A stretch of DNA of 56,791 nucleotides from Candidatus Zixiibacteriota bacterium (GCA_011773985.1 WVWN01000003.1:2898-59688), one strand, 5' to 3'; shown: positions 6,681 through 31,401, counted from the stretch's first letter. Made by a program: numbers and translations. Notes: generated from the sequence alone by a model not told the origin.

Positions 6681-6701
6681 CGCGTCCCGTTCTTAGGACA
6701 C

Positions 6702-8054: not shown

Positions 8055-10244
8055 TTACCTCGTCGCGTCGCGTTGGCTTTTTAGAGCTTTGAGGTATTCC
8101 CGGGGCCGCGGGTCGCCCGGCCTGGCGACGGCCGCGCGCTCGAACGCCGTCCGCGCCTCGTCGTATTGACCCAACGCTGCTTGGCACTGCCCCAACCTCA
8201 GCGTAGCGTCCTCGAAATCCGGGTGTAATCTCAGCGCGCTGGCGAACGCCGCGGCCGCGGCCACGTAGTCGCCGGCGGCCTGGTTCTCCCGGCCCAAATT
8301 GTAATAGTAATCCGCGCGGCGGAAGTCCCGGTAGAAGGCCTTCAGCGCTTCTTCTTTCGGGATGGCGCCGAACCGGCCGGGGTCGTAGAGGGGGTGGTAG
8401 GCGCGGGAGCGGAAGCCGTCGTAGGGCCGCCCGACCTCGAAGACGCGGACGTTGTACGTCTCGAGGACGAGGCGGAACCGGCGCAGCTTCTCCGGGTGGA
8501 ACTGCATGAGGGCCGCGGCCGAATTGGGCCCCGGTTCTCGAGCCGTCGCGTTGTAAAACGAACCCGTGCCGCGCGAGAGGACCTGCGGCGCGAAGTGCAC
8601 CACGTATTTTACGCCCCACCGGCGGCACAGGCGGTAGAACGTCTCCTCGTCCGCGACCGCCGCCTCGGCGTAGGCGAGGGCTTTGCGCCGGACCTCGGGC
8701 ACTTCGAACATCGGGTTTAGCGCGATGGGCCAACCGGCCAGATATAAATAAGGAGGGCTCAAGGAGAAATCGGCCAGCACGGGCCCGGGCGACGGGTGGC
8801 GCGCCATCCACAATAGCAGCTCGACGCGCTCGGAGCCGTAGTACCAGGGGATTTCCGGTTCGTACCCGGTGACCGAGGCCACGACGCCGCGGAACCACTC
8901 CGGGGGTTTTTGGTTAGTACTCGTATAAATATGAAAGCCCCACAACGGAATGAGGACGAGGGCGTAGCAAAGCCGTGCCTTTACGCGCGCGACGCCCGCC
9001 GCAGGGTAAATGCTGAGGAGCGCGACCCACGGCGCGAGGAATATGGTCAGCCTGGATATCAGGAGATATAGGATTATGAAAACCGGTGCGGCCGCGGCGA
9101 CGAATTCGCCCTCCCGCAGCCGCCTTCGCGCGAGGTGGTACCACCACAATATTAAGCCCGCGGCCGCGAGAACGGCCATGGGGCCGTATTCGATAAATAA
9201 CCTCAGTCTGTCGGGCGATTGGTACGGCCCAACCCAGAATAGTCGGGCCTCCGGCGAGAGGGCCGCCGGGCCGGGATATTTCCCCAGATGGACGACCTTT
9301 GCCCAGATCAGCTCGAAAACGTGGCCGTAAGCGGGGGAGCGCCCGAAGGCCAAAGAGGAGGCGACGAGGACGACGGCGGCGCCGGCCACGAGCCACCTCG
9401 CCCTATCCGCTCTTTTTGCCATTTTGGCCAGTGCCCACGCCGCGACCGGGGCCGCCGCCAGCGCCGCGCCCACGTTCCACAACGCTCCTTTAACCCAAAG
9501 GGGTTTGTTGAGTACCGCGGCTGCGGCGAGGCCGACCGCCAACGCGGCGCCCGCGAAGGCCGCCCGGGCCGGGCGCCCGGCGACGCCGTACGCGACGACG
9601 AAGAGCGCGAGGACGGCGACGTAAAATTGGCTCATATGCCAGCAGGAGCCGGCCCACAGCGTCGCCGCCGCGCCGGCCCCGGCGACGAGCCACCGCCTTC
9701 GGCCGTCGTCCGAAGTCAACAAATATAACGTCGCGGCCGTCGCGACGAGTAGGCCGGGCATGGCGAAATCTTCGCGCAGGAAGTTGCTCCAGCCTCGCGA
9801 GTAGGCGCCGAACGTTCCGGCGTAGATGAGCGTCGCGGCCGCGGCGGGCCACGGCCTTCGGTAGACGGCGTAAGCCAACGCCACGAAGGCCACGACGCTC
9901 GCCGCGGAGAGAACATTTATCAGCGCGCGCGTGGCGAGAAAAGTGTCCCCCCGGTGCAATTTGTAAAATAGGGTCGCGGTGCGGTCCGGCACCGTGAGTA
10001 TCATCCGGTCCGCCGGGAAGCCCTCGGGCCAGAGGGCAAGCCGGTCGAGCTTGGGCGGTTCTCGCCCCAACATCCTCATCTCGGCGTAGCGGAAGCGCAT
10101 GCAGGATTCGACGAAGTAGGAAAATTCGCGGGGCGAAAGGCGGTCCATTAGGGCGTAGCGGAACGTCGCTCCGGCGACGGCGGCCAGCACGAGCGCGCCC
10201 CAGGGCGTATAACGGTGAGTGAGGAATGTCCTTATAAGTTTCAA
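8055..10244 (-). CDS. GT-C multi-TM glycosyltransferase, DPY19/STT3-like, with C-terminal TPR
   Basis: Many TM segments; motifs ESCMRFRY, LREDFAMP, WHMSQF, RLTIFLAP, PIALNPMFEVPEVR; TPR-like helices at the C-terminus. Confidence 0.7.
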   Translation of the reverse strand: MKLIRTFLTHRYTPWGALVLAAVAGATFRYALMDRLSPREFSYFVESCMRFRYAEMRMLGREPPKLDRLALWPEGFPADRMILTVPDRTATLFYKLHRGDTFLATRALINVLSAASVVAFVALAYAVYRRPWPAAAATLIYAGTFGAYSRGWSNFLREDFAMPGLLVATAATLYLLTSDDGRRRWLVAGAGAAATLWAGSCWHMSQFYVAVLALFVVAYGVAGRPARAAFAGAALAVGLAAAAVLNKPLWVKGALWNVGAALAAAPVAAWALAKMAKRADRARWLVAGAAVVLVASSLAFGRSPAYGHVFELIWAKVVHLGKYPGPAALSPEARLFWVGPYQSPDRLRLFIEYGPMAVLAAAGLILWWYHLARRRLREGEFVAAAAPVFIILYLLISRLTIFLAPWVALLSIYPAAGVARVKARLCYALVLIPLWGFHIYTSTNQKPPEWFRGVVASVTGYEPEIPWYYGSERVELLLWMARHPSPGPVLADFSLSPPYLYLAGWPIALNPMFEVPEVRRKALAYAEAAVADEETFYRLCRRWGVKYVVHFAPQVLSRGTGSFYNATAREPGPNSAAALMQFHPEKLRRFRLVLETYNVRVFEVGRPYDGFRSRAYHPLYDPGRFGAIPKEEALKAFYRDFRRADYYYNLGRENQAAGDYVAAAAAFASALRLHPDFEDATLRLGQCQAALGQYDEARTAFERAAVARPGDPRPREYLKALKSQRDATR

Positions 10245-18641: not shown

Positions 18642-19635
18642 CCTCGGGCGGCTTTGCGAACTCTTCCAATAGGTCGGCGACGTCGCGGCGGCAGGCGACG
18701 CGGGCCGCGCGGGGTAGGAGGGCTTTGGCGCCGCGCGCCCCTTTTAAGTACGCGAGGAGGTGTATGCGGAAATGCCGCGCCGCGCGCTCCTCCCCGTCGA
18801 GCGCCGCGGCCTTGTCGAAATGGAACATTATCGCCTCCGCCAATTCGGCCCGCGACGGCGCCGCCGGCACCGCGCCGTCCGCCAGGTAGGTTTCTATATC
18901 GTTAATTAAATAAGGTCGGCTCACCGCGGCCCGCCCCACCATGACCCCCGCGGCGGCTGTTTCTTTCAACAGCGCTTCGGCGTCCTGCGGCGTTTCGACG
19001 CCGCCGTTGGCCCAGACCGGCAAAGGGACCGTTTCCGCGATCTCCTTTACGGCGTAAAAATCCACCGGCCCGCGCAGGCCCTGGTCGACGGCGCGGCCGT
19101 GTACGGTCAGTGCCGCCACCCCCTCCTCGGAGAGCAACTTCGCCGCGGCGAGGGTGCTTTTATCGGACGGGTCGCGCGCCAACCTCATCTTGGCGGTGAC
19201 GGGGACGGGCGAGGCCGCGACGACGGCCCGGGCGATTCTGCGCAGCGCCACCGCGTTACCCGCCAGCGCCGCGCCGGCTTCCTGCTTGCGTATCTTGGGC
19301 GCGGGGCAGCCGAGGTTAACGTCGACCAGCGGGAAGCCGGCGTCCGCGACTATCTTCGCCGCCTCGGCCATACCACCGCGCCGGGCGCCGAAAATCTGCG
19401 CCGCGACCACCGGCGCGTCGTCGTCGCCCCGGGCCAGGAGGCGGAGGGTATTGCGGTTACGGCGAACGAGGCCCTCGGCGGATATGAGCGGCGTGACGGC
19501 GTAGGGGCAGCCGAACGTCGCGACGGCGGCGCGGAAAGGATACTCGGTGTAGCCGGCCAGCGGCGCGAGCGCCACGCGCCCGGGGACCTCGACGGTGCCG
19601 ACCTTTATCGTACGGGAGTTCGAAGCCTCGGCCAA
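18631..19635 (-). CDS. dusB: tRNA-dihydrouridine synthase (Dus family)
   Basis: LAPLAG, DVNLGCP, VTAKMR, TVHGR, NGGV, VMVGRA. Confidence 0.9.
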   Translation of the reverse strand: MAEASNSRTIKVGTVEVPGRVALAPLAGYTEYPFRAAVATFGCPYAVTPLISAEGLVRRNRNTLRLLARGDDDAPVVAAQIFGARRGGMAEAAKIVADAGFPLVDVNLGCPAPKIRKQEAGAALAGNAVALRRIARAVVAASPVPVTAKMRLARDPSDKSTLAAAKLLSEEGVAALTVHGRAVDQGLRGPVDFYAVKEIAETVPLPVWANGGVETPQDAEALLKETAAAGVMVGRAAVSRPYLINDIETYLADGAVPAAPSRAELAEAIMFHFDKAAALDGEERAARHFRIHLLAYLKGARGAKALLPRAARVACRRDVADLLEEFAKPPEDGP

Positions 19636-19637
19636 TT

Positions 19638-20048
19638 TTAACCTTCTCCCGGCGCCAGTTTATTTACCAAATCCACGGCCTTGCGCGCGAGCTCGAGCGC
19701 GACCTCGGCCTGCTCGGGCGTGACGGCGTACGCCGGGACGTCCTCGGCGAAGCTGTCGGGGAAGCGCGGTGCTGTGTAAAAGTCGTCGAGTTTGCCGACG
19801 TCGGCGACGGCCTCGAAAGGCGCGGCGCGCGAGCTGCACTTCAGCACGAGGGACCTTATCGAATGGCCGAAGACGGCGGTTTCGTCGTTGTAGTAGAGGT
19901 ATGCTTTGAGAGCGCGCTCCGCGGCCTGGTGGGCCAGAAACGTCGCCCATTCGTAAGCGTCGTTTTTCTGGAGGACCGCGGCCGCGTCGAGGTCGCGTTG
20001 GGCTTGCTGCAGCCAACGTTTGAATATGCGCAGTTTATCTTCTTCCAT
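19638..20048 (-). CDS. HEPN domain protein (no adjacent MNT partner)
   Basis: WLQQAQRDL..A...FLAHQAAERALKA...GHS...Y..PRFPD. Confidence 0.85.
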   Translation of the reverse strand: MEEDKLRIFKRWLQQAQRDLDAAAVLQKNDAYEWATFLAHQAAERALKAYLYYNDETAVFGHSIRSLVLKCSSRAAPFEAVADVGKLDDFYTAPRFPDSFAEDVPAYAVTPEQAEVALELARKAVDLVNKLAPGEG

Positions 20049-20217
20049 AACGCTCCCGGCGCCCCGGCCTTCACGTTAAGGCCAGGAAGGGGACGACGGA
20101 TTACGACGGCGTTCTTTCGTTTAGAACGCGGCCCTCACGCCGTAAAATTATCATAAATCGGTATATTAGGCAAAAAGAAAAGCCGCCTCCCCGCGGTTCC
20201 GTGTAAACGCGAGACAT

Positions 20218-20285
20218 GTAGGGGCCGGTCTTTAGGCCGGCCCGGCGCCGGCCGAAAACGGGCCGACCCGAAGGCCGGCCCCTAC
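20218..20285. repeat. REP-like doublet (GTAGGGGCCGG...GGCCCCTAC), left boundary of array
   Basis: Two inverted hairpin units with GTAG/CTAC ends; similar copy with shared flank CCGTGTAAACGCRAGACAT at 29312-29378. Confidence 0.8.
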
Positions 20286-20306
20286 GTTTGCACATCTGTT
20301 GTGGGT

Positions 20307-21269
20307 TTACCGGAACAACGCCTTCACGCGGCCGAGGGAGGCCGGCGCGACGGCGACGTTGACCCACCGGAAGTACTGGATGCGGTTGTTCTGGGTGTCC
20401 GCGACGTAGACGCGGTTCCCGCCGGGCGCCACCGCGACGCCGAACGGGTTCTTGAAGCGGCTGTTCGCCCCGCCCCGCGAGCCCCACTTGCCCAGGAACG
20501 AGCCGCTAGCCGTGAAGTACTGGATGCGGTCGTTGCCCATGTCGGCGACGTAGACGTAGCCGTTGGGCGCGACGGCGATACCCCAGGCCGATTCGAACTG
20601 GCCGTCGGCCGCGCCGCGCCTGCCCCACTGGCCCAGGTACGAGCCCACGGGGGTAAAATACTGGACGCGGTGGTTGTCGCCGTCGGTGACGTACGCGTTG
20701 TTGTTGGGGGCGAGTGCGACGCTTATGGCCGCGAGAAACTCGCCCTGGCCTGAGCCCCGCGAGCCCCACTTGCCCAGGAACGAACCGCTGGAGGTGAAGT
20801 ACTGGACGCGCTCGTTTTCGCTGTCGACGACGTAGACGTAGCCGTTAGCGGCCGCGGCCGCGTCGGTAGGCATCTCGAACTGGCCGTTGCCGGTCCCCTT
20901 CGAGCCCCACCGCCCGAGTAAGCTGCCGCTCGCGGTGAAGTACTGGATGCGGTTGTAGTTAGTGTCGGCGACGTAGACGCTGCCGGCGGGAGCCACGCCC
21001 AGGCCGAACGGGAAGTACATCTCCAAGACGCCGCCGAATTTGCCGAGGAACGAGCCGGTCGGCGTGAAGTATTGGATGCGGCTGTTGTAGGTGTCGGCGA
21101 CGTAGACGTTTCCGCTGGGGCCGACGGCCACGTCCATCGGCGTGGCGAACTGGCCGTCGCCCATGCCGCTGGAGCCCCATTTGCCCTCGTAGACCCATTC
21201 CGCGAGAGCGCCGGAGGCGAGGGCCAGCGCGGCGAGCGCCGCGGCCGTAGCGATTTTGCCTAGTAACAT
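20307..21269 (-). CDS. Secreted NHL-repeat 6-bladed beta-propeller, tail VAPASLGRVKALFR
   Basis: Signal peptide; six repeats of P.GVAVAP.G.VYVAD..N.RIQYFT..GSFLGKWG. Confidence 0.92.
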   Translation of the reverse strand: MLLGKIATAAALAALALASGALAEWVYEGKWGSSGMGDGQFATPMDVAVGPSGNVYVADTYNSRIQYFTPTGSFLGKFGGVLEMYFPFGLGVAPAGSVYVADTNYNRIQYFTASGSLLGRWGSKGTGNGQFEMPTDAAAAANGYVYVVDSENERVQYFTSSGSFLGKWGSRGSGQGEFLAAISVALAPNNNAYVTDGDNHRVQYFTPVGSYLGQWGRRGAADGQFESAWGIAVAPNGYVYVADMGNDRIQYFTASGSFLGKWGSRGGANSRFKNPFGVAVAPGGNRVYVADTQNNRIQYFRWVNVAVAPASLGRVKALFR

Positions 21270-21381
21270 GAGTCTCCTCTCGATAATAAGTGGTTTCCTT
21301 AAATATAGCAGAATAAGGCGGCCGGCTCCAATTAAAAAAGGCCGGCGCCAAGGCCGGCCCGTATTTTAACGGCAAACGCCC

Positions 21382-21927
21382 CTACCGGAACAACGCCTTT
21401 ATCCGCCCCACGGACGACGGCGCGACCGCGGGCTCGGTCCAGCGGAAGTACTGGATGCGGTAGTTAAAGGTATCGGCTACGTATACGCGGGTGGCTGTAG
21501 GCGAAGGGGCTACGCCTGCGGGCCAATATAACTCGCCGTTGCCTGACCCGCGGGTACCCCATTTGCCGAGGAACGAACCGGCGGCAGTGAAATATTGTAT
21601 GCGATGTCTCTGCGTATCGGCGACGTAAACGTTGCCGTTGGGTGCTACGGTGATGCCTTCCGGGTATCTGAATTCGCCGTTACCCGAACCATAAGTACCC
21701 CATCTACCAAGGAAAGAACCTGTTCCCGTGAAATACTGAACGCGGTTGTTATACGTGTCTATTACGTAGACGTTGCCATTAGGGTTTAGGGCTACTTCGT
21801 AAGGGTTTTCGAATTGGCCCGGGCTATTCCCGCGGGAGCCCCACTTGCCTTCGTAGACGTAGTCGCTTAACGCGGGAATCGCCGCGGCAACCGATATCGC
21901 AATCCCCAAAAACGCGTTCGTTTTCAT
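21382..21927 (-). CDS. Secreted NHL protein with only three repeats, tail VAPSSVGRIKALFR
   Basis: N-terminal two repeats nearly identical to 25113-26084, joined in frame to a terminal repeat. Confidence 0.85.
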   Translation of the reverse strand: MKTNAFLGIAISVAAAIPALSDYVYEGKWGSRGNSPGQFENPYEVALNPNGNVYVIDTYNNRVQYFTGTGSFLGRWGTYGSGNGEFRYPEGITVAPNGNVYVADTQRHRIQYFTAAGSFLGKWGTRGSGNGELYWPAGVAPSPTATRVYVADTFNYRIQYFRWTEPAVAPSSVGRIKALFR

Positions 21928-21979
21928 ATCGGTTCCTCTGCGCGGATACCGGACCCCTAAGCGCGCGGCGGGGCAAAAT

Positions 21980-22004
21980 GGGGCGACTGGCCAGTCGCCC
22001 CTAC
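21980..22004. repeat. Partial REP-like palindrome GGGGCGACTGGCCAGTCGCCCCTAC
   Basis: Matches the 28-bp palindrome minus its first three bases; overlaps TAG at 22001-22003. Confidence 0.85.
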
Positions 22005-22755
22005 TCGAACAGCGCGTTCACGCGGCCGAGGGAGGCGGGTACGACATATTCCGAGGTCCGGGTATACCAGTAATAGTAATCCGTAGCGTCGTCTATTACG
22101 TATAACTCCTTGTCGTAAGGGGGCGCCGTATACGCGGTATAACCTAAGCCGAGGGCGTTTGGATTCCCGTGATAATCGGTACGCCGTTCTCATATACCGT
22201 ATGCGTCGCCGCGTCGGCGACGTATAAGTGGGCGTAGCCGCAACAGCCGGTGGGGCGGCGCCCGGGGCCCGCGAACGTACCGACGAGCGAGCCCGTCGTT
22301 CGGTTTAAAAGGGCGATTGAGTTACGGTCGGGGATGGCGACTATTAAACCGGGAGGAAAGGACGCCTTAAAGTCTAAATCCGCCGGCCCGTAGAACGGGC
22401 ACCGAAACGAGCTTACGACCGAACCTTGCTTCGTGGTCTCGTATATCCACGACGTCCGGTTATTAGTTATGTAAAACGTTTCGGTATGGTAATATACACC
22501 CCACGCCCCCGGCCCCCCGGGCGCGGGGAAACTCGACCGGATTGTACTCTGTTCCCAAGAGTAGCGATACACGTAAGGGTTAGGGCCGTCTATGACGATA
22601 TAACCCGCAAAGGGCGTACCACTCGAATAACCCCGCGGATTGGGCCCCGGCGTGGGGTACGAGGCCATCAACTTCCAAGCGTCGCCATAACTCGCGCCGC
22701 AAACGCAAACGAGTAATAATCCCAAGGTAAGTAACTTCTTCGCCGCTTTAATCAC
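22001..22755 (-). pseudogene. Frameshifted secreted propeller-like gene (paralog of 26161-26910)
   Basis: GTG 22755; frame ends IQTPSA*; adding one C near 22153-22155 restores QTPLGLGYTAYTAPPYDKELYVIDDATDYYYWYTRTSEYVVPASLGRVNALFE*. Confidence 0.85.
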
Positions 22756-22885
22756 CTCCCACGACGACGTTGTCCTCGCGGGCCGGCTTGTAGTTGTGCT
22801 TCGTCGCCGTGAGCTTGCCTTCGAAAAATACAAAACCGCCGCTGCCGCGAAGGGCGCGCCGGTTGGGTATAGTTTTCTCTACCAT
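22748..22885 (-). pseudogene. Leader fused to C25-peptidase-like C-terminal remnant (45 codons, ...EGKLTATKHNYKPAREDNVVVGGD*)
   Basis: 3' part matches the end of 26903-27205; 5' part matches leaders starting at 24986 and 29197. Confidence 0.7.
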
Positions 22886-22911
22886 ACTTCCCTCCTCGTT
22901 CCTTCTAGTTA

Positions 22912-22941
22912 ATTATATACTTTAATCAACTCCTGCGTCAA
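22912..22941 (-). promoter_or_regulatory. Repeated promoter TTGACG-18-TATAAT (copy 1)
   Basis: Same block at 25013-25042 and 29224-29253. Confidence 0.7.
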
Positions 22942-22987
22942 GCGGTTTTTTTATTAAGAAAACCCGCCTCGGCGGCGGCCTAACGTA

Positions 22988-23015
22988 GTAGGGGCGACTG
23001 GCCAGTCGCCCCTAC
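22988..23015. repeat. Perfect 28-bp palindrome GTAGGGGCGACTGGCCAGTCGCCCCTAC (REP-like)
   Basis: Read directly; contains the TAG stop of 23012-23980; followed on the minus strand by a hairpin-T terminator. Confidence 0.92.
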
Positions 23016-23980
23016 CGGAACAACGCCTTAATTCTACCCACCGACGAGGGCGCGACCGCGGGCTCGGTCCAACGGAAGTACTCGATCCGGTGGTTACGAT
23101 GGTCTACGACGTAGGTACGGCCGCCGTTCGCCGTCAAGGCTAGGTTAAAGGGCCAATCGAATTCGCCGTTACCCCTCCCGGGAGTCCCCCATTTCCCTAG
23201 GAACGAGCCGCTCGAGGTAAAATATTGGATGCGGTTATTATTCCTGTCGGCTACGTAAATGTAACCGTCGCTCCCGTACGTGATCCCTTCGGGGAATTGG
23301 AATTGGCCGTCGCCCGTACCTTGCGAGCCCCATTTGCCGAGGAACGAGCCGCTAGAGGTGAAATATTGGACGCGATGATTATCGCGGTCGGTAACGTAAA
23401 CGTTACCGTTCGGGGCGACCATTACGTACATGGGCGGCCTGAATTGGCCGTCGCCCCTCCCCGCGGAGCCCCATTTTCCGAGGAAAGACCCGCCCGGCGT
23501 GAAGTATTGGACGCGGTAATTGCCGACGTCGGTTACGTACCAGTTCCCGCTCGCCGCGAACGCTATTCCCTTAGGCCCCCGGAACTGGCCATTCCCCGTA
23601 CCCTCCGAGCCGTGAAAGCCGAGATAGGACCCGGTGGAAGTGAAGTATTGGACGCGATGATTATCGAAATCGGTAACGTATACGTCACCCCTCGAGGCAA
23701 ACGCCAAGCCCCGGGCGAGGTCGAACTGGCCCGGGCCCGTACCGAGCGAACCCCATTTGCCGAGGAATGACCCGGTAGCAGTAAAGTATTGTACCCGGTT
23801 ATTATAAGCGTCTGCCACGTATACGTTGCCATTGGCTGCTATCGCGATATCTTCCGGGAGGTTGAACTGGCCGTTACCGGTGCCTCCGGAACCCCACTGG
23901 CCTTCGTAGACCCAAACACCCGAGGCCAGCGGGGCGGCGACCACAAACCCGCCAACTGTGCATAAGACGTAACGCTTCAT
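23012..23980 (-). CDS. Secreted NHL-repeat 6-bladed beta-propeller, tail VAPSSVGRIKALFR
   Basis: Signal peptide, six NHL repeats. Confidence 0.92.
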   Translation of the reverse strand: MKRYVLCTVGGFVVAAPLASGVWVYEGQWGSGGTGNGQFNLPEDIAIAANGNVYVADAYNNRVQYFTATGSFLGKWGSLGTGPGQFDLARGLAFASRGDVYVTDFDNHRVQYFTSTGSYLGFHGSEGTGNGQFRGPKGIAFAASGNWYVTDVGNYRVQYFTPGGSFLGKWGSAGRGDGQFRPPMYVMVAPNGNVYVTDRDNHRVQYFTSSGSFLGKWGSQGTGDGQFQFPEGITYGSDGYIYVADRNNNRIQYFTSSGSFLGKWGTPGRGNGEFDWPFNLALTANGGRTYVVDHRNHRIEYFRWTEPAVAPSSVGRIKALFR

Positions 23981-24063
23981 AATGTTTCCCCTTTTATTAT
24001 TTATAACGATGAATAAGGGCCCGCATTTACGCAGACCCTATTTACGGGCGAACTGTCGCGCAT

Positions 24064-24801
24064 CTATTTAAACAATCCCTTGACGCGGCCGAGCGACCCC
24101 GGCGCGACGGCCTCGTGGCCGCGCCACTCAAATCTATATATATAGTTAGTGGCCCTGTCAACAACCAACGTACGTGCATAAGGCGGGCCGTCTGTTAAAC
24201 GTTCCGCACACGCGGCTACCGGGGCATTCAAGTATCCGGTACCATAACCCAAAAAATATACCTTATGGGTCGCCGGATCGCCTAATATAGCGTTAGACGT
24301 GCTAACAGCGTCAATAGCCGTCAAACGGGTCCCAGGGCCGCGGAAAGAACTTAGGACCGAACCGGTCGTTGTTATCCTTATTGCAAGGTTATCGTCCGGA
24401 ATAGCGACATATAGCAACCAATCGCTAAGGTCGGCCGGGTGGGCCTTGGGGCAGCGGAATGAAGATATAACCGAACCGGTCGTCGTTAATTCATAGATGA
24501 AGCTATTATTATAGTTAGAAACCAAAATAGCATCCGAACCCCAACTCCTTAAACCCCAAACACCCCGCGGAACGTCCAACGTAATATATTCCGACGGCTT
24601 ACCCAGGTTATATACCCGCGGCGGCGAGCCGTCGCAAAGTACAGAACCGCCGTACGGGGCGTAGTAAGCGATACCGCGCGCGTTAAGGGCCGGAGCGGGA
24701 TAGGAGCCAACGACCATCCACCCCGTAGCCTCAATACTACCTACCGGGAGGAAAACAGCCGCTAACAACAAAGCTGCCGGTGATCTCACGTTAAAACCCA
24801 C
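24064..24801 (-). CDS. Secreted propeller-like protein, tail VAPGSLGRVKGLFK
   Basis: Signal peptide; IYELTTTGSVISSFRCP...PADL shared with 26161 and 28314 genes. Confidence 0.8.
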   Translation of the reverse strand: MGFNVRSPAALLLAAVFLPVGSIEATGWMVVGSYPAPALNARGIAYYAPYGGSVLCDGSPPRVYNLGKPSEYITLDVPRGVWGLRSWGSDAILVSNYNNSFIYELTTTGSVISSFRCPKAHPADLSDWLLYVAIPDDNLAIRITTTGSVLSSFRGPGTRLTAIDAVSTSNAILGDPATHKVYFLGYGTGYLNAPVAACAERLTDGPPYARTLVVDRATNYIYRFEWRGHEAVAPGSLGRVKGLFK

Positions 24802-24814
24802 TTGGCGAAAATCA

Positions 24815-24986
24815 TTACTGAATATTCAGGTCCGTCTTGTAGGCCGGGACGCAGTTTTTCATGGTCGCCGTAAGGTGAACGTTGCTCGCGGCCTCGGGAA
24901 CGATAAACTCGCAATTGCCTTCGTCGAAATACAAAGCCGCCGCTGCCGCGAACGGCGCGCCGGTTGGGTATAATTTTCTCTACCAT
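24815..24986 (-). pseudogene. Leader fused to a different C25-like C-terminal remnant (...FDEGNCEFIVPEAASNVHLTATMKNCVPAYKTDLNIQ*)
   Basis: Leader nearly identical to the 22885 copy up to TTGTATTTCGA, then a paralogous LTATxxNxxPA tail. Confidence 0.6.
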
Positions 24987-25012
24987 ACTTCCCGCCTCGT
25001 TATTTCTTGTTA

Positions 25013-25042
25013 ATTATATGCTTTAATCAACTCCTACGTCAA
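25013..25042 (-). promoter_or_regulatory. Repeated promoter TTGACG-18-TATAAT (copy 2)
   Basis: Direct repeat of 22912-22941. Confidence 0.7.
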
Positions 25043-25088
25043 GCGCTTTTTTTATTAAGAAAAGCCGCCTCGGGGGCGGCCTAACGTC

Positions 25089-25116
25089 GTAGGGGCGACT
25101 GGCCAGTCGCCCCTAC
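25089..25116. repeat. Perfect 28-bp REP-like palindrome
   Basis: Identical to 22988-23015; contains TAG of 25113-26084. Confidence 0.92.
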
Positions 25117-26084
25117 CGGAACAACGCCTTTATCCGCCCCACCGACGACGGCGCGACCGCGGGTTGCGATTCGCGGAAATACTGAATACGGTGGTTGTAA
25201 GAGTCCGCTACGTAAACCTTATTTGCCGTCGGCGTAGCGGCGACGCCAAGCGGCATATAAAATTGGCCGTTACCAGACCCACGCGTACCCCATTTACCAA
25301 GGAACGAACCGCTTGGCGTAAAATACTGGACGCGGTGATTATACGTATCGGCTACGAAAATCCTGCCGACCGGCGAAGCGCCTACGCCCGCGGGCCTGTT
25401 GAATTGCCCGTCGCTCGTACCGTAAGACCCCCATATGCCGAGGAAGCTGCCGGTCGACGTAAAGTATTGGACGCGATGGTTTAAAGCTTCGGTAACGTAA
25501 ACTTGATAGCGGGTTGAGAGGAAACCAAGGCCGTGGGGCTGATTAAACTGGCCCCACGCCGTACCGTACGAACCCCATTTGCCCAAGAAGGAACCGCTCG
25601 AGGTGAAGTATTGGACGCGGTGGTTATAGTATTCTGCAACGTAAACGTTGCCGTTCGGCGCCACGGCGACGCGAATGGGACGATTGAATTGACCGTTACC
25701 GGAGCCCAGCGTACCCCATTTACCTAGAAACGACCCAGTGGGGGTGAAATATTGTATGCGGTGTCTTTGCGTATCGGCGACGTAGACGTTGCCGTTCGGT
25801 GCTAAGGCTATGCCTTCCGGGTATCTGAATTCACCGTTACCCGAACCATACGTACCCCATCTACCAAGGAAAGACCCTGCTTGCGTAAAATACTGAACGC
25901 GGTTGTTGTACGTGTCGACGACGTAAACGTTCCCGTTAGGCGCGAGCGTTATTTCACGAGGTCTATCGAATTGGCCCGGGCTATTCCCGCGGGAGCCCCA
26001 CTTGCCTTCGTATACGTAGTCTGTTAAGGCCGGGGTAACCGCGACTAGTAAAATGGCAATAACTAAAAATATGGTCCGCTTCAT
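25113..26084 (-). CDS. Secreted NHL-repeat 6-bladed beta-propeller, tail VAPSSVGRIKALFR
   Basis: Signal peptide, six NHL repeats. Confidence 0.92.
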   Translation of the reverse strand: MKRTIFLVIAILLVAVTPALTDYVYEGKWGSRGNSPGQFDRPREITLAPNGNVYVVDTYNNRVQYFTQAGSFLGRWGTYGSGNGEFRYPEGIALAPNGNVYVADTQRHRIQYFTPTGSFLGKWGTLGSGNGQFNRPIRVAVAPNGNVYVAEYYNHRVQYFTSSGSFLGKWGSYGTAWGQFNQPHGLGFLSTRYQVYVTEALNHRVQYFTSTGSFLGIWGSYGTSDGQFNRPAGVGASPVGRIFVADTYNHRVQYFTPSGSFLGKWGTRGSGNGQFYMPLGVAATPTANKVYVADSYNHRIQYFRESQPAVAPSSVGRIKALFR

Positions 26085-26160
26085 TTAGGCCCCTTTACGC
26101 GTTACCCTAAGCGGTTCCTGCTCCGCCACCCCGTATAAAGCCCCGAAAGGCCGTTCGCCC

Positions 26161-26910
26161 CTACTCGAACAACGCCTTCACGCGGCCGAGGGAGGCGGGT
26201 ACGATATCTCCCGACGTACGGGCGTAGTAGTAATAGTAATCCGTGGCGTCGTCAACGACATATAACTTGATGTCGTATGGCGGTTCCATACTCCAAGTAT
26301 AACTAAAACCTACCGGCGTTTGGATACCCGCGATAATCGGTACGGCGTCCTCGTATATCTTGTGGGTCGCGGCGTCGGCTACGTAGAAGTGCGCGTACCC
26401 GCCACACCCCGTAGGGCGGCGCCCCGGCCCGGCGTACGTACCGATAAGGGAACCCGTCGTATAGTTTAAAACCGCTATTATATTGCGGTCGGGAACCGCA
26501 ATTATAAAGCCCGGCCACGCGAATTCGCAATCGGCGGGCCCGTCGAATGGGCATTGGAAGGAATTTACTACCGAGCCTTGTGTGGTCGCCTCGTATATCC
26601 AAGAAGTTCGGTTATTGGTTATAAAAAAACCGCTACCCGTTATTTTTGCTATTCCCCACGCCCCCGGCCCCCCGGGCGCCGGGAAACTCCAAACGATCGA
26701 GCTGCTTGTCCAAGAATAAAAATAAACGTGGGGTTCGCCCCCGTCCATTACTATATACCCCGCCTCGGGACCAATGCCCCAATAACCGCGCGGATTGGAC
26801 CCGGGCGTGGGGTACGAGGAGACCAACGTCCACACGTCGCCATAACTCGCGCCGCTAACACAAAACAACAACAATCCCAAGGTAAGTAACTCCTTCGCCG
26901 CCTTAATCAC
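26161..26910 (-). CDS. Secreted propeller-like protein, tail IVPASLGRVKALFE
   Basis: Signal peptide; SYPTPGSNPRG, FPAPGGPGAWG family motifs; SD GGAGG overlapping the GTG start. Confidence 0.85.
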   Translation of the reverse strand: MIKAAKELLTLGLLLFCVSGASYGDVWTLVSSYPTPGSNPRGYWGIGPEAGYIVMDGGEPHVYFYSWTSSSIVWSFPAPGGPGAWGIAKITGSGFFITNNRTSWIYEATTQGSVVNSFQCPFDGPADCEFAWPGFIIAVPDRNIIAVLNYTTGSLIGTYAGPGRRPTGCGGYAHFYVADAATHKIYEDAVPIIAGIQTPVGFSYTWSMEPPYDIKLYVVDDATDYYYYYARTSGDIVPASLGRVKALFE

Positions 26911-27205
26911 CTCCCACGACGACGTTGTTCTCGATGGCCGGCTTGTAATTGTGCTTCGTAGCCGTGAGTTTGCCGTCGTCGAAGCCGAATAAAAGGTCCT
27001 CGAAGGTGCACCTCCCGTGGGTGCCGGTCGTGTTTGTAAGGTAGTACCAATGTTGCCAAAGGCACACCTTGGCCCCCGGTACCGTTTGGTTACCGGTGGT
27101 CGTCACCGTAACTTCTAGCGTCTTCATCGTACCGTTCGCCCACCAAGTGTAGTCGATATTTAACGGCGCGGGCTCCGCGGTCCACAGCTCCATCGTCGGG
27201 TCGCC
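26903..27205 (-). pseudogene. 3' fragment of a C25 (gingipain-like) peptidase gene
   Basis: GDPTMELWTAEP resembles the end of the C25 catalytic domain, followed by an Ig-like segment VTV...VPGAKVCL...LTATKHNYKP; the upstream part of the gene is replaced by a terminator. Confidence 0.65.
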
Positions 27206-27242
27206 GCGCCACGAAAAGCCGCCTCGCGGGCGGCCTACGGTC

Positions 27243-27270
27243 GTAGGGGCGACTGGCCAGTCGCCCCTAC
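27243..27270. repeat. Perfect 28-bp REP-like palindrome
   Basis: Identical to 22988-23015; contains TAG of 27267-28238. Confidence 0.92.
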
Positions 27271-28238
27271 CGGAACAACGCCTTAATTCTACCCACCGAC
27301 GAGGGCGCGACCGCGGGCTCGGTCCAACGGAAGTACTGGATGCGGTCGTTAAAGGTATCGGCGACGTAAACGCGAGAACCATTCGCAGAAACTACGACGC
27401 CTTCGGGGTAATAGAACTCCCCGTTGCCCGAACCCCTCGTACCCCACTTGCCGAGGAATGAACCGTCGGGAGTGAAATACTGGATGCGGGCGTTGTAGAT
27501 GTCCGCTACGAAGACGTTGGCGTTAGGGGCCGTCGCGACGCCGTAAGGACGGTTGAATTGGCCGTCGCCGCTACCCTGCGAGCCCCATTTACCGAGGAAA
27601 GAGCCGCTCGAGGTAAAGTATTGGACGCGGAAGTTAAGGCGGTCGCCGATGTAAACGCGGGCCCCCGACGGGAGGACGGCAACGCCCATCGAGCGATTGA
27701 ATTGGCCGTTACCGGAGCCGGACGCACCCCACTTGCCGAGGAACGAGCCGCTCGCGGTGAAGTATTGGACGCGGTCGTTCTCGGTGTCGCCGACGTATAC
27801 GTTGCCGTTGGGAGCGACCGCTATCCCGAAAGGCCGCTCGAATTGGCCGTCGCCGGCGCCCTGTGAGCCCCATTTGCCGATGAACGACCCCGTCGGCGTG
27901 AAATATTGGATCCGGTGTCGAGCCGTATCAGCGACGTAAACGTTGCCGTTGGTAGCGACCGCGATACCTTCCGGGTATCTAAATTCGCCGTCCCCCGAAC
28001 CAGATTTACCCCAATTACCGCGAAAATGACCTTCCCACGTGAAGTACTGGACGCGGTGGTTATAAGTGTCGGCTACGTAAACGTTGCCGTTAGGGGCTAG
28101 GCCAATACCCGTAGGCTTATCGAATTGGCCTAACTGGGACCCGGACGCCCCCCACTTGCCCTCGTAGACCCACGCGGCTAAACCCGACGTAACCGCGGCG
28201 GCGAAAACGGCAACTGCGTAAAACGCAGTCCTTTTCAT
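27267..28238 (-). CDS. Secreted NHL-repeat 6-bladed beta-propeller, tail VAPSSVGRIKALFR
   Basis: ATG 28238 after SD AAAGGAGG; six NHL repeats. Confidence 0.92.
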   Translation of the reverse strand: MKRTAFYAVAVFAAAVTSGLAAWVYEGKWGASGSQLGQFDKPTGIGLAPNGNVYVADTYNHRVQYFTWEGHFRGNWGKSGSGDGEFRYPEGIAVATNGNVYVADTARHRIQYFTPTGSFIGKWGSQGAGDGQFERPFGIAVAPNGNVYVGDTENDRVQYFTASGSFLGKWGASGSGNGQFNRSMGVAVLPSGARVYIGDRLNFRVQYFTSSGSFLGKWGSQGSGDGQFNRPYGVATAPNANVFVADIYNARIQYFTPDGSFLGKWGTRGSGNGEFYYPEGVVVSANGSRVYVADTFNDRIQYFRWTEPAVAPSSVGRIKALFR

Positions 28239-28313
28239 CTCGCCTCCTTTGCGCGGAGTACCGAACCCCAAAGCGAGAGGCCCGGTTACGAAAGAACGAA
28301 AGGCTTTTCGCCC

Positions 28314-29057
28314 CTAATCGAATAACGCCTTCACGCGGCCCAACGACGCGGGTTCGGCCTTTGACGAATCACGATATAAGTAGATATAATCGGTCGCGTC
28401 GTCAATTACCTGGACGCCGACTACGGAGCCCTTTGCCATTATGGCGATATTACCGAAGCCGGTGGGGGTTTTAATGCCCGTAATTACGGGTTTGCCTTCC
28501 TCGTAAACGGCGTGTGTTGCCGAATCCGCAACGAAGAACTCGCCGGGGTAGCCGCCACACGCCGTCGGCCGCGAGCCGGGTGCTTTGAACGTACTTACCA
28601 ACGAGCCCGTATTCTCGTCTACGACGACGATAACGTTCCGTTCCGGGATCGGTATATAAAGCTTGGAGCCAAACCCCCTGTCCATGTCGGCGGGCCCGGC
28701 GACCGGGCACCGGAACGAACTAACAACCGAGCCGGTCGTAGTAACCTCATAAATCCAGGAACTCCTTTCGTTAGATAAGTACATGTTCGAACCGGGGCCC
28801 GGACATATGCCCCAAGCCCCCCGGCCGCCCGGCGCCAGGAAACTCGCTATAATCCGCCCCGTGTACCAATACATCCGATAGACGTAAGGCGTCGCGCCGT
28901 CCTGAACGATATATCCCCTCAATTCACCGTCGCTCGTATAACCGCGGGGATTGGGCCCGGGCGTAGGATAGGAAGCATAAAGCTCCCAGGTGGCCGCGGC
29001 CGCGGCTACGGCGATGAAAACCGTACACGCGGCCGCCCAAATAGATTTGTCTCTCAT
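28314..29057 (-). CDS. Secreted propeller-like protein, tail AEPASLGRVKALFD
   Basis: Signal peptide; paralog of 26161-26910. Confidence 0.85.
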   Translation of the reverse strand: MRDKSIWAAACTVFIAVAAAAATWELYASYPTPGPNPRGYTSDGELRGYIVQDGATPYVYRMYWYTGRIIASFLAPGGRGAWGICPGPGSNMYLSNERSSWIYEVTTTGSVVSSFRCPVAGPADMDRGFGSKLYIPIPERNVIVVVDENTGSLVSTFKAPGSRPTACGGYPGEFFVADSATHAVYEEGKPVITGIKTPTGFGNIAIMAKGSVVGVQVIDDATDYIYLYRDSSKAEPASLGRVKALFD

Positions 29058-29062
29058 GATTA

Positions 29063-29197
29063 CTACTCTCCTACCGTAACGTTGTCCTCAAGAGCCGGCT
29101 TGTAGTTGTGCTTCGTCGCCGTGAGCTTGCCGTCGAAATACAAAACCGCCGCTGCCGCGAGGGGCGCGCCGGCTTAGTTGGATTACCGAAAGGACAT
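29063..29197 (-). pseudogene. Leader with two in-frame stops fused to C25-like remnant (MSFR*SN*AGAPLAAAAVLYFDGKLTATKHNYKPALEDNVTVGE*)
   Basis: Manual translation; repeat of the 22748-22885 block. Confidence 0.7.
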
Positions 29198-29223
29198 ACT
29201 TCCCTCCTCGTTCCTTCTAGTTA

Positions 29224-29253
29224 ATTATATACTTTAATCAACTCCTGCGTCAA
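29224..29253 (-). promoter_or_regulatory. Repeated promoter TTGACG-18-TATAAT (copy 3)
   Basis: Direct repeat of 22912-22941. Confidence 0.7.
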
Positions 29254-29311
29254 GCGCTTTCTTTATCAAGAAGAGCCGCCTCGGGCGCGGTGCCGTGTAA
29301 ACGCAAGACAT

Positions 29312-29378
29312 GTAGGGGCCGGTCTTTAGACCGGCCCGCCCCCGCGCGAAACGGGCCGACCTGAAGGTCGGCCCCTAC
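29312..29378. repeat. REP-like doublet, right boundary of array
   Basis: GTAGGGGCCGGTCTTTAGACCGGCCC...GGGCCGACCTGAAGGTCGGCCCCTAC; direct repeat of 20218-20285. Confidence 0.8.
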
Positions 29379-29410
29379 CGGAACAACGCCTTAACGCGGC
29401 CTAGTGAGGT
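29375..29410 (-). pseudogene. Orphan C-terminal tail TSLGRVKALFR* with no gene body
   Basis: ACC TCA CTA GGC CGC GTT AAG GCG TTG TTC CGG TAG read on the minus strand. Confidence 0.85.
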
Positions 29411-29441
29411 GCGTTTAAATTTAATGTTAACCGAACGTGGA

Positions 29442-30566
29442 TTAATCCGGCATCGATTTTAAACTTTTCCTAACCTGCGCACGCCTTAAAATATATTTAT
29501 TTTTTGCCTTGGCTTGTAATATAGCGATCCGGTCTAATTCATTTTTTTCGTATTTTAGTAACGCTATCTCTAAACACCTAACTATTTCTTTTATAACTTC
29601 GGGGAAAGGTATTACGGCCGGTACGAACATTAAAAACCCTTCTTTACTCGATACCTGTTGCGTAGAACCGTCTTTTCCGATAACAATCGATATTTCATCT
29701 TCGCTAAAACCCTCTTCTCTTAATATTATATAATTAGTAAATATAGTTGCAACGATATCTTCTACGAATGTATTTAAGGAGATCGGTTCGAGATTTGGGG
29801 AGAAAAATTGGAAATCCGTATCTATTTGTTTTTCCTCTATAAAGGATTTTACTAGTGGTCTATAATTAAACTTACTCATTATATAATTTTGGAATTCGTA
29901 TTGCCCTAATATCGCGAAACCCGGCTCCCTTATTATTACGTTACTTATTTCTTCAATTTGGTCAGCAGCAAAAATTTTTATGCCCTCAGGGAAAGTATCC
30001 TGAAATTCGTCCTTTAGAACTAGGCCGCATATTTCCCTTTCCCAAATTAATTTTTTATTTTGCTCGTCTCGTCGTATAAGTCGTGTTTTATAACCTAGGC
30101 GCTCTATAATTTGTTCGGTTTTATTTACGCATTTTTGGGCTAGTTTCCTTTTTTCGGCTTCTGTTTCCCCGCCGATAGTTGTTAACCCCATTTCTTCAAA
30201 AAATTCATCGAAATTTAAAACTTCCTCTTCGGCCCTTGTCCTTTTTAGATATATTTTTTCTTGTTTTAACCTGATGCGGAGGTTTTTCTTTAACGTAAGG
30301 AAGTATTCTTCGGCGTTCACTTCTTCGAAAGGCGAAATATCTATTATTACCTCGAAATTCGGTTCGCCGCTATATGTTTTTTCGTTTCCCTTCCAATACC
30401 CAATACAATTAACAAGTGCACAGCCGCCGAAGTTCAAAGTTATATCTTCTAGGATAGACTCCAACAAAGAATCTTCGAAACGGTTGCCTTCGTTATCGTA
30501 CCGGGGTATTGTTAGTTTCCAAGTCTCGATTTTTTTTAGAACGCCGTTATCGGTTATTTTATACAT
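29442..30566 (-). CDS. AT-rich hypothetical cytoplasmic protein, 374 aa
   Basis: Long ORF in a visibly AT-rich stretch; no signal peptide; no family recognised with confidence. Confidence 0.8.
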   Translation of the reverse strand: MYKITDNGVLKKIETWKLTIPRYDNEGNRFEDSLLESILEDITLNFGGCALVNCIGYWKGNEKTYSGEPNFEVIIDISPFEEVNAEEYFLTLKKNLRIRLKQEKIYLKRTRAEEEVLNFDEFFEEMGLTTIGGETEAEKRKLAQKCVNKTEQIIERLGYKTRLIRRDEQNKKLIWEREICGLVLKDEFQDTFPEGIKIFAADQIEEISNVIIREPGFAILGQYEFQNYIMSKFNYRPLVKSFIEEKQIDTDFQFFSPNLEPISLNTFVEDIVATIFTNYIILREEGFSEDEISIVIGKDGSTQQVSSKEGFLMFVPAVIPFPEVIKEIVRCLEIALLKYEKNELDRIAILQAKAKNKYILRRAQVRKSLKSMPD

Positions 30567-30627
30567 ACGGCTAATTCCCGTAATAATTATTTATTGTTGG
30601 TTTTGGAACGGTTTCCAAGATTTAAGT

Positions 30628-31401
30628 TTATATTAAAATAACCCCCATCACCAGCAACGCTACGAACGGCGCGACGCCGGCGCCTACGGTCCCCGGGTGG
30701 AAGTCCGGCCCGAAGCCCGAGGCGAATAGGCCGTGGCCCTCGACGCCCAACGATACGTAGTTCCCGGCGACCATTCCCCCCACGCAGGCGACGACTACTA
30801 GTATTAAGCCGAGCGCGAAGGTCCGCGGCCTGCGGGGCGCTACGTCCAACACGTCCGGGTAGAGGAGGCCCAGCCGCCGGACGCGCTTGTCGAGCGCCTT
30901 GAGTAGGAGCGGCCCCAATACCACCGTGAAGATGACGTTGTTCACGACGATGATGTTCGCCAGCGCGGCGAAGGGCGCCTGGCCCAGCAGGTCTATCCCC
31001 CAGCCGATGAATAGGCCGCACGCTAAGGCGGCGAGAATTATAGCCGCCTCCATAAGTAATAAGCGCCGCCAGTTGGAAAGGTATTCCGCGGCGCCGGCGC
31101 GGACGATGCGGTAGGGGATGTACGCCAACAGGAAGTTGCCGCCGAGGCCGAAGAGGCTACCCCATCCCAGCGTCCCCGAGAAGTCCCCCAGCAGGTTCCC
31201 TAGGGCCGAGCCGACGGCGCCCGCGGGGCCGAAGAGCAGGCCCGCGACGAAAGGGATGGCTCGCCCGGGCGAGGTCTCCGTCAGGCCGGGTATGAGCGTG
31301 AGCGGTTTGAACGGTATGAGCAGCGCCGCGTACACCGCCGCGGTCACGGCCGCCAGGACGACCATCCGCGTGTTCTCCCACATCCTCGCGACTTCGCGCA
31401 C
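30628..31401 (-). CDS. queT: QueT-family ECF transporter S component
   Basis: MWENTRMVVL...YAALLIPFK...IPGLTE..PG...GLLFGPAGAVGSALGNLLGD. Confidence 0.8.
   Translation of the reverse strand: MREVARMWENTRMVVLAAVTAAVYAALLIPFKPLTLIPGLTETSPGRAIPFVAGLLFGPAGAVGSALGNLLGDFSGTLGWGSLFGLGGNFLLAYIPYRIVRAGAAEYLSNWRRLLLMEAAIILAALACGLFIGWGIDLLGQAPFAALANIIVVNNVIFTVVLGPLLLKALDKRVRRLGLLYPDVLDVAPRRPRTFALGLILVVVACVGGMVAGNYVSLGVEGHGLFASGFGPDFHPGTVGAGVAPFVALLVMGVILI

Follow-up and report, generated by a model that had tools for sequence, protein, structure and literature searches.

REP-bearing junctions in a variable array of predicted exported propeller and NHL genes from Candidatus Zixiibacteriota

In integron cassette arrays, gene units are punctuated by a palindromic element, with the integrase IntI, attI/attC sites and promoterless cassettes that share one common promoter. 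The pilE/pilS and vls systems are paralogous surface-protein families that evolve by gene conversion and ectopic recombination, and cargo of the type IX secretion system (T9SS) carries a C-terminal domain and is accompanied by a processing peptidase of the C25 family (PorU-type). Repetitive extragenic palindromic (REP) sequences and their REP-associated tyrosine transposases (RAYTs) are characterized by a conserved GTAG at the 5′ foot of the hairpin, and REPs were reportedly found at the join points of tandem duplications by Shyamala, Schneider and Ames in the EMBO Journal (9:939) in 1990. Here, we describe an array of gene pairs that resembles each of these systems in part. The array occupies 20.2–29.4 kb, on the minus strand, of a 56,791-nucleotide stretch from a Candidatus Zixiibacteriota bacterium (GCA_011773985.1, WVWN01000003.1:2898-59688; G000:C49:2898-59688), hereafter the window. 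It consists of four units of about 2 kb, each with a gene for a predicted beta-propeller followed by an NHL gene, and of a fifth, solo NHL gene; a REP, perfect or decayed, lies exactly at the 3′ end of every array gene.

The first-pass annotation of the window had called the array integron-like, a description that fits its logic only. As in integrons, a palindromic element marks the 3′ end of each unit, and the content varies between relatives at a fixed chromosomal site. The array nevertheless lies outside the integron class: no IntI is found beside it, three of the four units have their own promoter and every unit has a terminator, the genes form one paralog family rather than a set of unrelated genes, and the repeats that flank the array are ordinary REP doublets. 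No attI or attC site turned up, with no attC-model search made, and the elements present are REPs with a cognate RAYT. Clustered diverged copies, apparent conversion tracts, partial or silent copies and re-assortment between loci are shared with pilE/pilS and vls, but here conversion would be restricted to the non-coding junctions plus the last ~68 coding nucleotides, and there is no single expression site. In common with T9SS cargo, the array encodes predicted exported beta-propeller proteins with a conserved C-terminus, ancestrally beside a C25 peptidase, and the genome holds 37 matches to TIGR04183, the T9SS type A C-terminal domain; the C-terminal tail of the array proteins, however, has about 15 residues and no TIGR04183, Pfam or NCBIfam match. 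As in REP-mediated tandem duplication, REPs lie at the joins of head-to-tail chromosomal segments, but the segments are ancient paralogs, and the tract they share comprises REP, coding tail and promoter block, not the REP alone. Finally, in REP/REPIN–RAYT systems (Bertels and Rainey; PMC3337134), REPINs are REP doublets in inverted orientation; the present genome likewise has short GC-rich palindromes that start 5′ GTAG, inverted doublets and a single short HUH/Y RAYT with these repeats on both sides, and vertical persistence is seen across the genus. The differences are a low copy number (about 34), the use of the REP TAG as the stop codon of many exported-protein genes, and a RAYT bracketed, in this genome, by tail-coding remnants.

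The array is probably (at roughly 0.6) a birth-and-death repertoire of paralogs that is shuffled by homologous recombination at conserved junction modules. In this it is like other recombining paralog families and REP-joined duplications, and it is more structured than a plain tandem duplication. The genome, designated G000 (2.68 Mb in 91 contigs, 62% GC, completeness 90.6%), was compared with nine others of the genus, all ten being metagenome bins.

Diverged units and near-identical junctions

Open reading frames (ORFs), a repeat finder and self-BLAST bear out the arrangement of four tandem units plus a solo NHL gene that had been proposed from the DNA alone. Each unit begins with a sigma70-like promoter and what is left of the 3′ end of a C25 peptidase gene; the propeller gene and then the NHL gene follow, and the unit closes with a stop codon inside a REP hairpin and a terminator. 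The NHL 3′ ends are spaced 1075, 1630, 2101 and 2154 nt apart, and the NHL blades have a period of 141 nt. Two units depart from this order: unit 2 has no promoter, and unit 4 has a frameshifted propeller gene, an NHL gene without three blades and, as had been noticed before, a palindrome between its two genes. When the four upstream regions are aligned, the last NHL codons (...GRIKALFR) are followed by a TAG that is also the start of a 28-nt perfect palindrome (GTAGGGGCGACTGGCCAGTCGCCCCTAC), termed REP-A (GTAG-GGGCGACTGGCCAGTCGCCCC-TAC). Then come a GC hairpin with a T-run, the promoter (TTGACG-18-TATAAT), a ribosome-binding site (RBS) with ATG, and about 100 nt ending in ...GKLTATKHNYKP.... 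Three junctions match the promoter sequence at 11 of 12 positions (Table 1). The junction of unit 2 gave no promoter match, in keeping with the earlier description of one promoterless unit, and has 330 nt of C25 3′ end instead.

Divergence across the array is mosaic. Junction blocks are 0.85–1.00 identical and coding interiors 0.5–0.7, so the reported contrast between intergenic and coding parts is upheld. Between units, synonymous divergence (dS) is saturated, at 1.03 to infinity for the propeller genes and 1.08–1.93 for the NHL genes, and the ratio of nonsynonymous to synonymous divergence (dN/dS) is 0.12–0.37. The longest exact repeat has 95 nt (22988-23082 and 27243-27337) and comprises REP-A and the last ~68 coding nt of the unit 3 and unit 1 NHL genes, two genes with a dS of 1.41. 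The promoter block is 92–94% identical among its four copies in G000 (three in the array, one on contig C11), compared with 82% (G008) and 74% (G003) for the best matches in sister genomes; its pattern had no match in viral contigs. The near-identical junction tracts are the only long identical tracts in otherwise saturated paralogs, which implies that recent gene conversion or exchange was confined to the junctions. The junctions would therefore have been homogenized in G000 long after the units diverged.

The units themselves have relatives elsewhere in the genus. The propeller tree comprised 27 rows, five from G000 and 22 from 19 of 52 loci, and was built without the weaker loci (L035-L066), the fragment on contig C79 and the part of unit 4 after its frameshift; the NHL tree comprised 21 rows, without the 181-aa unit 4 gene and with the G007 queT-locus NHL gene cut by the contig end. 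Unit 1 pairs with a unit at the purA locus of G008 (support 100/100, and 100/99 in the NHL tree), units 2 and 4 fall into a clade with copies from G004, G008, G002, G007 and G009 (100/100), and unit 3 belongs to another old clade (99/97). One more G000 unit, on contig C11 and adjoining purA, groups with the queT-locus units of G007 and G008 (100/98 for the propeller gene, 100/100 for the NHL gene). Units 1 and 2 and the purA copy are placed in the same way by the NHL tree, and the synteny of the queT and purA loci was checked. These incongruent placements mean that G000 and G008 hold the same two unit types at swapped loci. By this phylogenetic measure, the units are old paralogs with orthologs in sister species, some of them at another locus, and not the products of recent tandem duplication.

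Exchange within a unit is indicated as well. In the queT-locus unit of G007, the propeller gene resembles the C11 purA type (0.7–0.95) and not unit 3 (0.4–0.6), the NHL gene resembles unit 3 (0.8–0.9), and the switch falls within a 135-nt interval that contains the propeller tail, a perfect REP-A, a spacer and the NHL 5′ end. Across the nine other genomes, the locus between the peptidoglycan-binding (PG-binding)/queT genes and the HEPN/dus genes is conserved in position and variable in content, as expected of the variable repertoire locus postulated between queT and the HEPN gene. G002 has one propeller gene there; G007 has a propeller and an NHL gene before its contig breaks off; G001 has two NHL genes and a propeller gene, followed by 8 kb of other genes; G009 has two propeller and three NHL genes; and G008 has a propeller fragment, a duplicated queT, a C25 remnant, a propeller gene and an NHL gene. 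Scars of past events include an orphan 10-codon tail fused to the right-hand REP doublet of the array (Table 1), a 37-codon NHL 3′ remnant ahead of the C11 promoter block, and a truncated propeller gene at C79:131-667, of which the C-terminal ~115 aa remain, 70% identical to unit 2 and with tail and REP-A. The orthologous locus of G008 (L007, G008:C7, about 6600-9930) adds a second queT copy and an out-of-frame fusion between a propeller-type signal-peptide start and the C25 remnant. The 5′ boundary of the long C25 remnant that two units of different type share, described below, counts among the scars as well. The swapped loci, the G007 recombinant and the homogenized junctions thus support the proposal of a reshuffling repertoire, whereas its further element, that the locus collects genes, found no sign of site-specific capture.

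From these data, a model can be drawn in which an ancestral operon would have carried a C25 peptidase gene, a five-bladed propeller gene and a six-bladed NHL propeller gene, in that order. The peptidase would have been lost from all G000 copies, with only its 3′ end kept as a leader. Each unit would form its own transcription unit, from a sigma70-like promoter (missing in unit 2) to an intrinsic terminator, with the stop codon placed in a GTAG-type REP hairpin. Gene conversion would keep the junction module (NHL 3′ end with its tail, REP, terminator, promoter and C25 remnant) near-identical, and RecA-type unequal exchange together with conversion at the junction tracts would alter the number of units, their propeller–NHL pairing and their placement at queT or purA. 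REP hairpins or nicking by the RAYT might stimulate exchange; the observations need no such role, and ordinary homologous recombination and gene conversion account for everything seen.

It is important to note that several points weigh against this interpretation. Recombination is deduced from sequence comparison, and selection for intact genes, rather than a preference for certain exchange sites, could explain why breakpoints fall at gene boundaries. Likewise, the identity of the junctions could stem in part from constraint on promoter, terminator and REP. The dN/dS values carry no sign of diversifying selection, so that the term repertoire derives from copy diversity alone. Between unit 1 and its G008 counterpart, dS is 0.25 and 0.44, at the low end of, though inside, a background with a median of 0.68 and an interquartile range of 0.44–0.86 (40 ORF pairs from 11 G008 loci after filters, including shadow ORFs with dN > dS and the unit 1 propeller gene itself), so that lateral exchange among lineages, instead of relocation within a lineage, may account for the placement of unit 1. 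Finally, the unit order is that of a single assembly, in that no independent contig spans two units and the Logan contigs break at every junction, and the one rearranged contig described below, L080, may be a chimeric assembly.

REP elements, the resident RAYT and the C-terminal tail

On sequence grounds, the palindromes are true REP/REPIN elements with a cognate RAYT on the same contig. The genome contains 12 REP-A and 22 REP-B copies in its 2.68 Mb, and both types begin with GTAGGGGC, that is, with GTAG. REP-B forms inverted, REPIN-like doublets at 20218-20285 and 29312-29378 and again on contigs C11, C43 and C79; the copy at C79:3344-3432 lies 3 kb from the truncated propeller gene, a third relic locus of the family. 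The blocks that contain the doublets at the two array ends (20175-20285 and 29268-29378) are 87.5% identical over 112 nt in direct orientation by self-BLAST, and the left one has an equivalent at the corresponding place in a sister species (L006, about 3121). The direct flanking repeats of ~110 bp seen at first pass are therefore real, but the block, REPIN-like doublet plus terminator, is an ordinary REPIN copy that recurs on C11, C79, C43 and at other loci, and is thus not an array-specific boundary. A 161-nt query ending in REP-A matched nine of the ten genus genomes, G000 included, with none in G009, and REP-A was also found as exact copies in sister genomes.

A RAYT flanked by the same REP types, as the first-pass annotation had envisaged, lies on the same contig, 41 kb to the right of the array and outside the window (G000:C49:73191-73679). 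It has 162 aa, an HUH motif (PDHLHLL) and a score of 88.8 bits against the NF047646 cut-off of 80, with REP-B upstream and a REP-A-like copy downstream. The three PF01797 matches in the genome are this RAYT, an IS200-type gene on contig C37 that has other hairpins and no REPs, and a broken fragment; RAYT homologs were found in eight of the ten genus genomes. The G000 RAYT (C49:73000-73900; L002 about 1230-2110) has on either side a directly oriented, ~70-nt copy of a gene 3′ end (RIT.TGA.VAPTSLGRV.ALF.*) that is joined to a REP; the REPs beside its homologs in sister genomes have no such tail remnants. At C70:77388 and 77455, and downstream of the G005 RAYT (L068), REPs come immediately after duplicated pieces of a further C-terminal coding motif (...LYGLTEEEIKIVE..*). 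Copying of REPs in this lineage seems to have included a few tens of nucleotides from the end of the gene upstream.

The tail is a lineage-specific stretch of 15 residues, ..VAPxSLGRVKALF[RK], encoded in the window at, for example, 20307-20351, 23012-23056 and 28314-28358. The pattern [SGAT][LVIM]G[RK][IVL]K[AGS][LMIV][FYW]x* occurs 137 times in the six-frame translation of G000, often in tandem gene arrays, and in 19 of these cases the stop codon is a TAG with GGG[GC][CG] behind it, a REP or REP relic. By a crude rule, 96 of 111 tail ORFs of at least 120 aa have a signal-peptide-like start, compared with 233 of 1000 control ORFs. Counts extended to the sister genus, the same order and beyond it: a strict DNA pattern for GR[VI]KALF matched 25–69 times per genome within the genus, 24 times in the sister genus, 3–7 times in the same order and 0–1 times beyond, with 0–1 matches for reversed-pattern controls, the tail being confined to this genus and its family. 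The tail has no Pfam or NCBIfam model, a literature search for the motif returned no match, and none of the five array proteins scanned (two NHL, three propeller) matched TIGR04183. Since TIGR04183 matches occur elsewhere in the genome, including on C25 peptidases, and the tail is unlike that model, the tail would represent a second, different C-terminal signal. It is presumed to be a sorting signal, and may be an undescribed one that serves an unknown sorting route. Other families of small tail-bearing exported proteins form tandem arrays of 3–7 genes (C25:118675-122897, C24:245-2771, C52:784-3476, C70:51998-53612, C90:4687-6606), mostly with ordinary terminators rather than REPs.

The tail was also considered as part of a mobile REP unit, a candidate that proved weak. 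TAG-plus-hairpin sites abut a tail in 9 of 59 cases (orientation-counted), codon identity between gene families is barely raised for REP-linked tails (0.527 in 25 pairs, compared with 0.438 in 581 and 0.429 in 2452 pairs), and the RAYT flanks of sister genomes carry no tails.

Two alternatives assign the REPs an active part. It is possible, if unlikely, that the sorting-tail codons, the TAG/REP hairpin, the terminator and the promoter together constitute a dedicated recombination joint, at which REP hairpins, perhaps nicked by the RAYT, set off exchange; an integrase-free, REP-punctuated process would thereby amplify genes for exported proteins, re-pair them and carry them between loci as cassettes, and would spread the lineage-specific sorting tail as well. 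We consider it unlikely, too, that a dedicated cassette system operates, in which the RAYT or another enzyme cuts and joins site-specifically at the stop-codon REP hairpins and captures genes in integron style. Such a system would explain why a REP ends every array gene, why REPIN copies accompany both array ends and the C11 unit, why the G000 RAYT is bracketed by tail remnant and REP, and why a perfect REP-A lies in the G007 crossover interval, and the L080 join would be of the expected circle or duplication type. However, the sister RAYT homologs have REPs and no tail remnants, the figures for tail-abutting sites and codon identity just given are low, the same REPINs sit at unrelated loci, and units bring their own promoters. 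Moreover, all breakpoints also fall in tracts long enough for RecA-type exchange, and in the accessible part of PMC3337134, RAYTs act on REPs and REPINs, with gene movement not among the activities described.

Assembly support and remaining alternatives

Public reads were consulted as Logan contigs from two runs (X1 and X2) of a single study. The joints listed in these contigs have sides of 20–36 nt, with the exception of a single X2-only joint (side 80, with 47 nt compatible with either side); all stand at 90% likeness, a level flagged as unreliable. The rearranged or circular forms that had been anticipated are represented by a single candidate, and no circle is proven. This candidate, L080, is a 3358-nt metagenome contig about 100% identical to G000 that joins the unit 2 propeller gene, C25 remnant and terminator via the 95-nt repeat to the unit 3 NHL gene, propeller gene and promoter, that is, the sequence left of 27243 to the sequence right of 23082, in conflict with the assembly. 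The join fits a tandem duplication or an excised circle of the 4255-nt segment of units 2 and 3, or a wrong assembler exit; because it lies inside the 95-nt exact repeat, it may be a chimera, and it is taken as a lead and not as evidence. X1 depths of 23.6 for unit 2, 18.8 for unit 3 and 18.3 for the flank show no fixed duplication. Over the unit 4 propeller gene (window 21826-22811), an X1 contig has 13 differences and a depth of 12.2 compared with about 18, and may represent a strain variant of a decaying unit.

These data bear on the explanation that the array is an artifact of assembly or binning, with units of co-occurring strains or species strung across shared repeats, which is very unlikely. 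The bin has 91 contigs, no independent contig covers two units, L080 has its conflicting join, and unit 4 is discrepant in depth and sequence, as such an artifact would predict. Against this, the longest exact repeat reaches only 95 nt, the unique parts of units 1–3 and the flanks have similar X1 depths (15.8–23.6, compared with 18.3) with 0–1 differences, the C11 locus is reproduced at 99.99–100% over 13 kb in two other assemblies, and sister species, including one with a single-contig genome, also have several units at the locus.

Programmed variation of the pilin or vls kind, in which expression is limited to one or a few units, with silent or partial ones as conversion donors, is very unlikely. 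Unit 2 is promoterless behind a terminator, unit 4 is frameshifted and truncated, and conversion tracts are present; yet three units have identical strong promoters and hence there is no single expression site, conversion would have affected the junctions and not the variable coding parts, and diversifying selection has left no sign. Lastly, in-situ tandem duplication followed by ordinary divergence, with intergenic likeness due to constraint on promoter, terminator and REP, would suit the common architecture of the 2.1-kb head-to-tail units and a dN/dS range that fits plain purifying selection, but it is largely refuted by the trees, in which units lie closer to orthologs of other species, some at another locus, and it has little to offer for a 95-nt exact tract that extends 68 nt into saturated coding sequence or for a promoter block more alike within the genome than to its sisters.

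Components and surroundings of the array

All five NHL ORFs match Pfam NHL (PF01436; E 1.6e-20 to 4e-50, 72–166 bits against a cut-off of 20) and score below the cut-off of the ScyF equivalog NF035926 (185–224 against 350). None of the four propeller ORFs matches any Pfam family. An AlphaFold2 model built on a 12-sequence alignment is all-beta and five-bladed (pLDDT 86.1, pTM 0.80), and its best match in the PDB is 3mbr, a five-bladed bacterial glutaminyl cyclase (E 3.2e-12, TM 0.68/0.71). None of the 12 aligned members matches a cyclase family in Pfam, even at E up to 10, and the propeller profile finds only weak generic propeller matches in the PDB (E 0.0035 or worse). Because the predicted fold matches and membership in the cyclase family fails at the sequence level, the label propeller, which had been given to these genes from the start, is right as a fold label only. 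Both unit proteins have signal-peptide-like N-termini.

The leaders upstream of the propeller genes had been described as C25 remnants, and comparison with the closest sister genome, G004 (91% and 95% aa identity to G000 for queT and dus), indicates that this is right: they align as 3′ remnants of a C25 peptidase gene. The propeller gene of G004 is immediately preceded by an intact 804-aa gene that matches Propeptide_C25, Peptidase_C25 (PF01364, E 8.5e-35) and, weakly, CarboxypepD_reg. The 804-aa gene ends in ...LTATKHNYKP... (LTATKHNYKPALLDNVTIGE), and the 330-nt remnant of unit 2 aligns with its 3′ end from a shared boundary onward. Two more species have C25–propeller–NHL operons. Five intact C25 genes lie elsewhere in G000, none of them next to a propeller or NHL gene, and no C25 catalytic domain is left in the window. 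The long C25 remnant (26903-27199; L007:6208-6501) is an intact frame of 97–98 codons in two species, with the same 5′ boundary (GGCGGCGACCCGACGATGGAG) and a dN/dS of 0.22–0.36; the boundary is shared by G000 unit 2 and a G008 unit of another type. This remnant could have been spread with the junctions, or could be a small free-standing gene. An Rfam scan of 19500-31000 gave chance-level hairpin matches only, below the gathering scores, and hence no riboswitch or leader family in the C25 remnant.

Table 1. Positions of array features in the window
Feature	Position	Strand	Remarks
Left flank	20175..20285	-	Terminator-like hairpin and REPIN-like REP-B doublet (GTAGGGGCCGGTC...GGCCGGCCC / GGGCCGACC...GGCCGGCCCCTAC); 21 nt downstream of solo NHL TAA
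Solo NHL gene	20307..21269	-	320 aa; six 47-aa blades; signal-peptide-like N-terminus; tail ...PASLGRVKALFR
Terminator-like hairpin	21339..21360	-	Downstream of short unit 4 NHL gene
Unit 4 NHL gene	21382..21927	-	181 aa; three blades (about 423 nt) fewer than unit 2
Perfect REP-A, 26 nt	21980..22005	.	Directly 3′ of unit 4 propeller stop codon, between both unit 4 genes
Unit 4 propeller gene	22001..22767	-	1-nt frameshift near 22145; tail ...LGRVNALFE
Junction upstream of unit 4	22768..23015	-	REP-A 22988-23015; terminator 22964-22978; promoter 22912-22941; RBS/ATG; short C25 3′ remnant
Unit 3 NHL gene	23012..23980	-	322 aa; last ~68 coding nt and REP-A 100% identical to unit 1
Unit 3 propeller gene	24064..24801	-	245 aa; distinct old subtype, 35-38% aa identity to unit 1
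Junction upstream of unit 3	24802..25116	-	REP-A 25089-25116; terminator 25062-25082; promoter 25013-25042; C25 remnant
Unit 2 NHL gene	25113..26084	-	323 aa
Unit 2 propeller gene	26161..26910	-	249 aa
Junction upstream of unit 2	26903..27270	-	No promoter; REP-A 27243-27270; terminator about 27212-27235; 98-codon open C25 3′ end 26903-27199
Unit 1 NHL gene	27267..28271	-	323-334 aa by start codon choice
Unit 1 propeller gene	28314..29057	-	247 aa; predicted 5-bladed beta-propeller (AlphaFold2)
Junction upstream of unit 1	29058..29290	-	Short C25 remnant; RBS/ATG; promoter 29224-29253; terminator-like hairpin about 29268-29290
Right REPIN-like REP-B doublet	29286..29378	-	
Orphan tail remnant	29379..29410	-	Codes SLGRVKALFR; TAG is REP start; abuts 34%-GC insert

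In agreement with the first-pass annotation, neither integrase nor transposase was detected in the window, where a profile search found no match to PF00589, PF00665 (rve), PF01609 (DDE_Tnp_1) or PF01797; the three PF00589 matches of the genome lie on contigs C18, C26 and C44. Between queT and the orphan tail remnant, an insert of 34–38% GC (29411-30620) contains an orphan 374-aa ORF (29442-30566) with no Pfam, NCBIfam or PADLOC match and no usable Atlas match. In both runs, the contig over it is covered at about half the depth of the flanks (10.5 compared with 18–20, and 2.1–2.6 compared with 4.7–6.8), as could result from GC bias or from an insertion that only part of the population carries; low-GC stretches adjoin queT also in G008 and G004. 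In three sister species, a gene for a B12-binding radical SAM protein lies between the array and the HEPN gene (L006:3205-4700, L007:2824-4320, L008:12506-14002), and it is absent at that position in G000 (20049-20306), the one position the search covered.

REPINs are repeats that depend on a RAYT. Clear natural examples of a protein repertoire whose long-term shuffling is organized by REP-bearing junctions are few, above all outside the Proteobacteria. The locus offers a tractable example in an uncultured lineage, with two exchange loci, dated paralogs, homogenized joints and a resident RAYT. More generally, the tail, carried by about 137 predicted exported proteins beside T9SS-type cargo, may mark an unknown sorting route.

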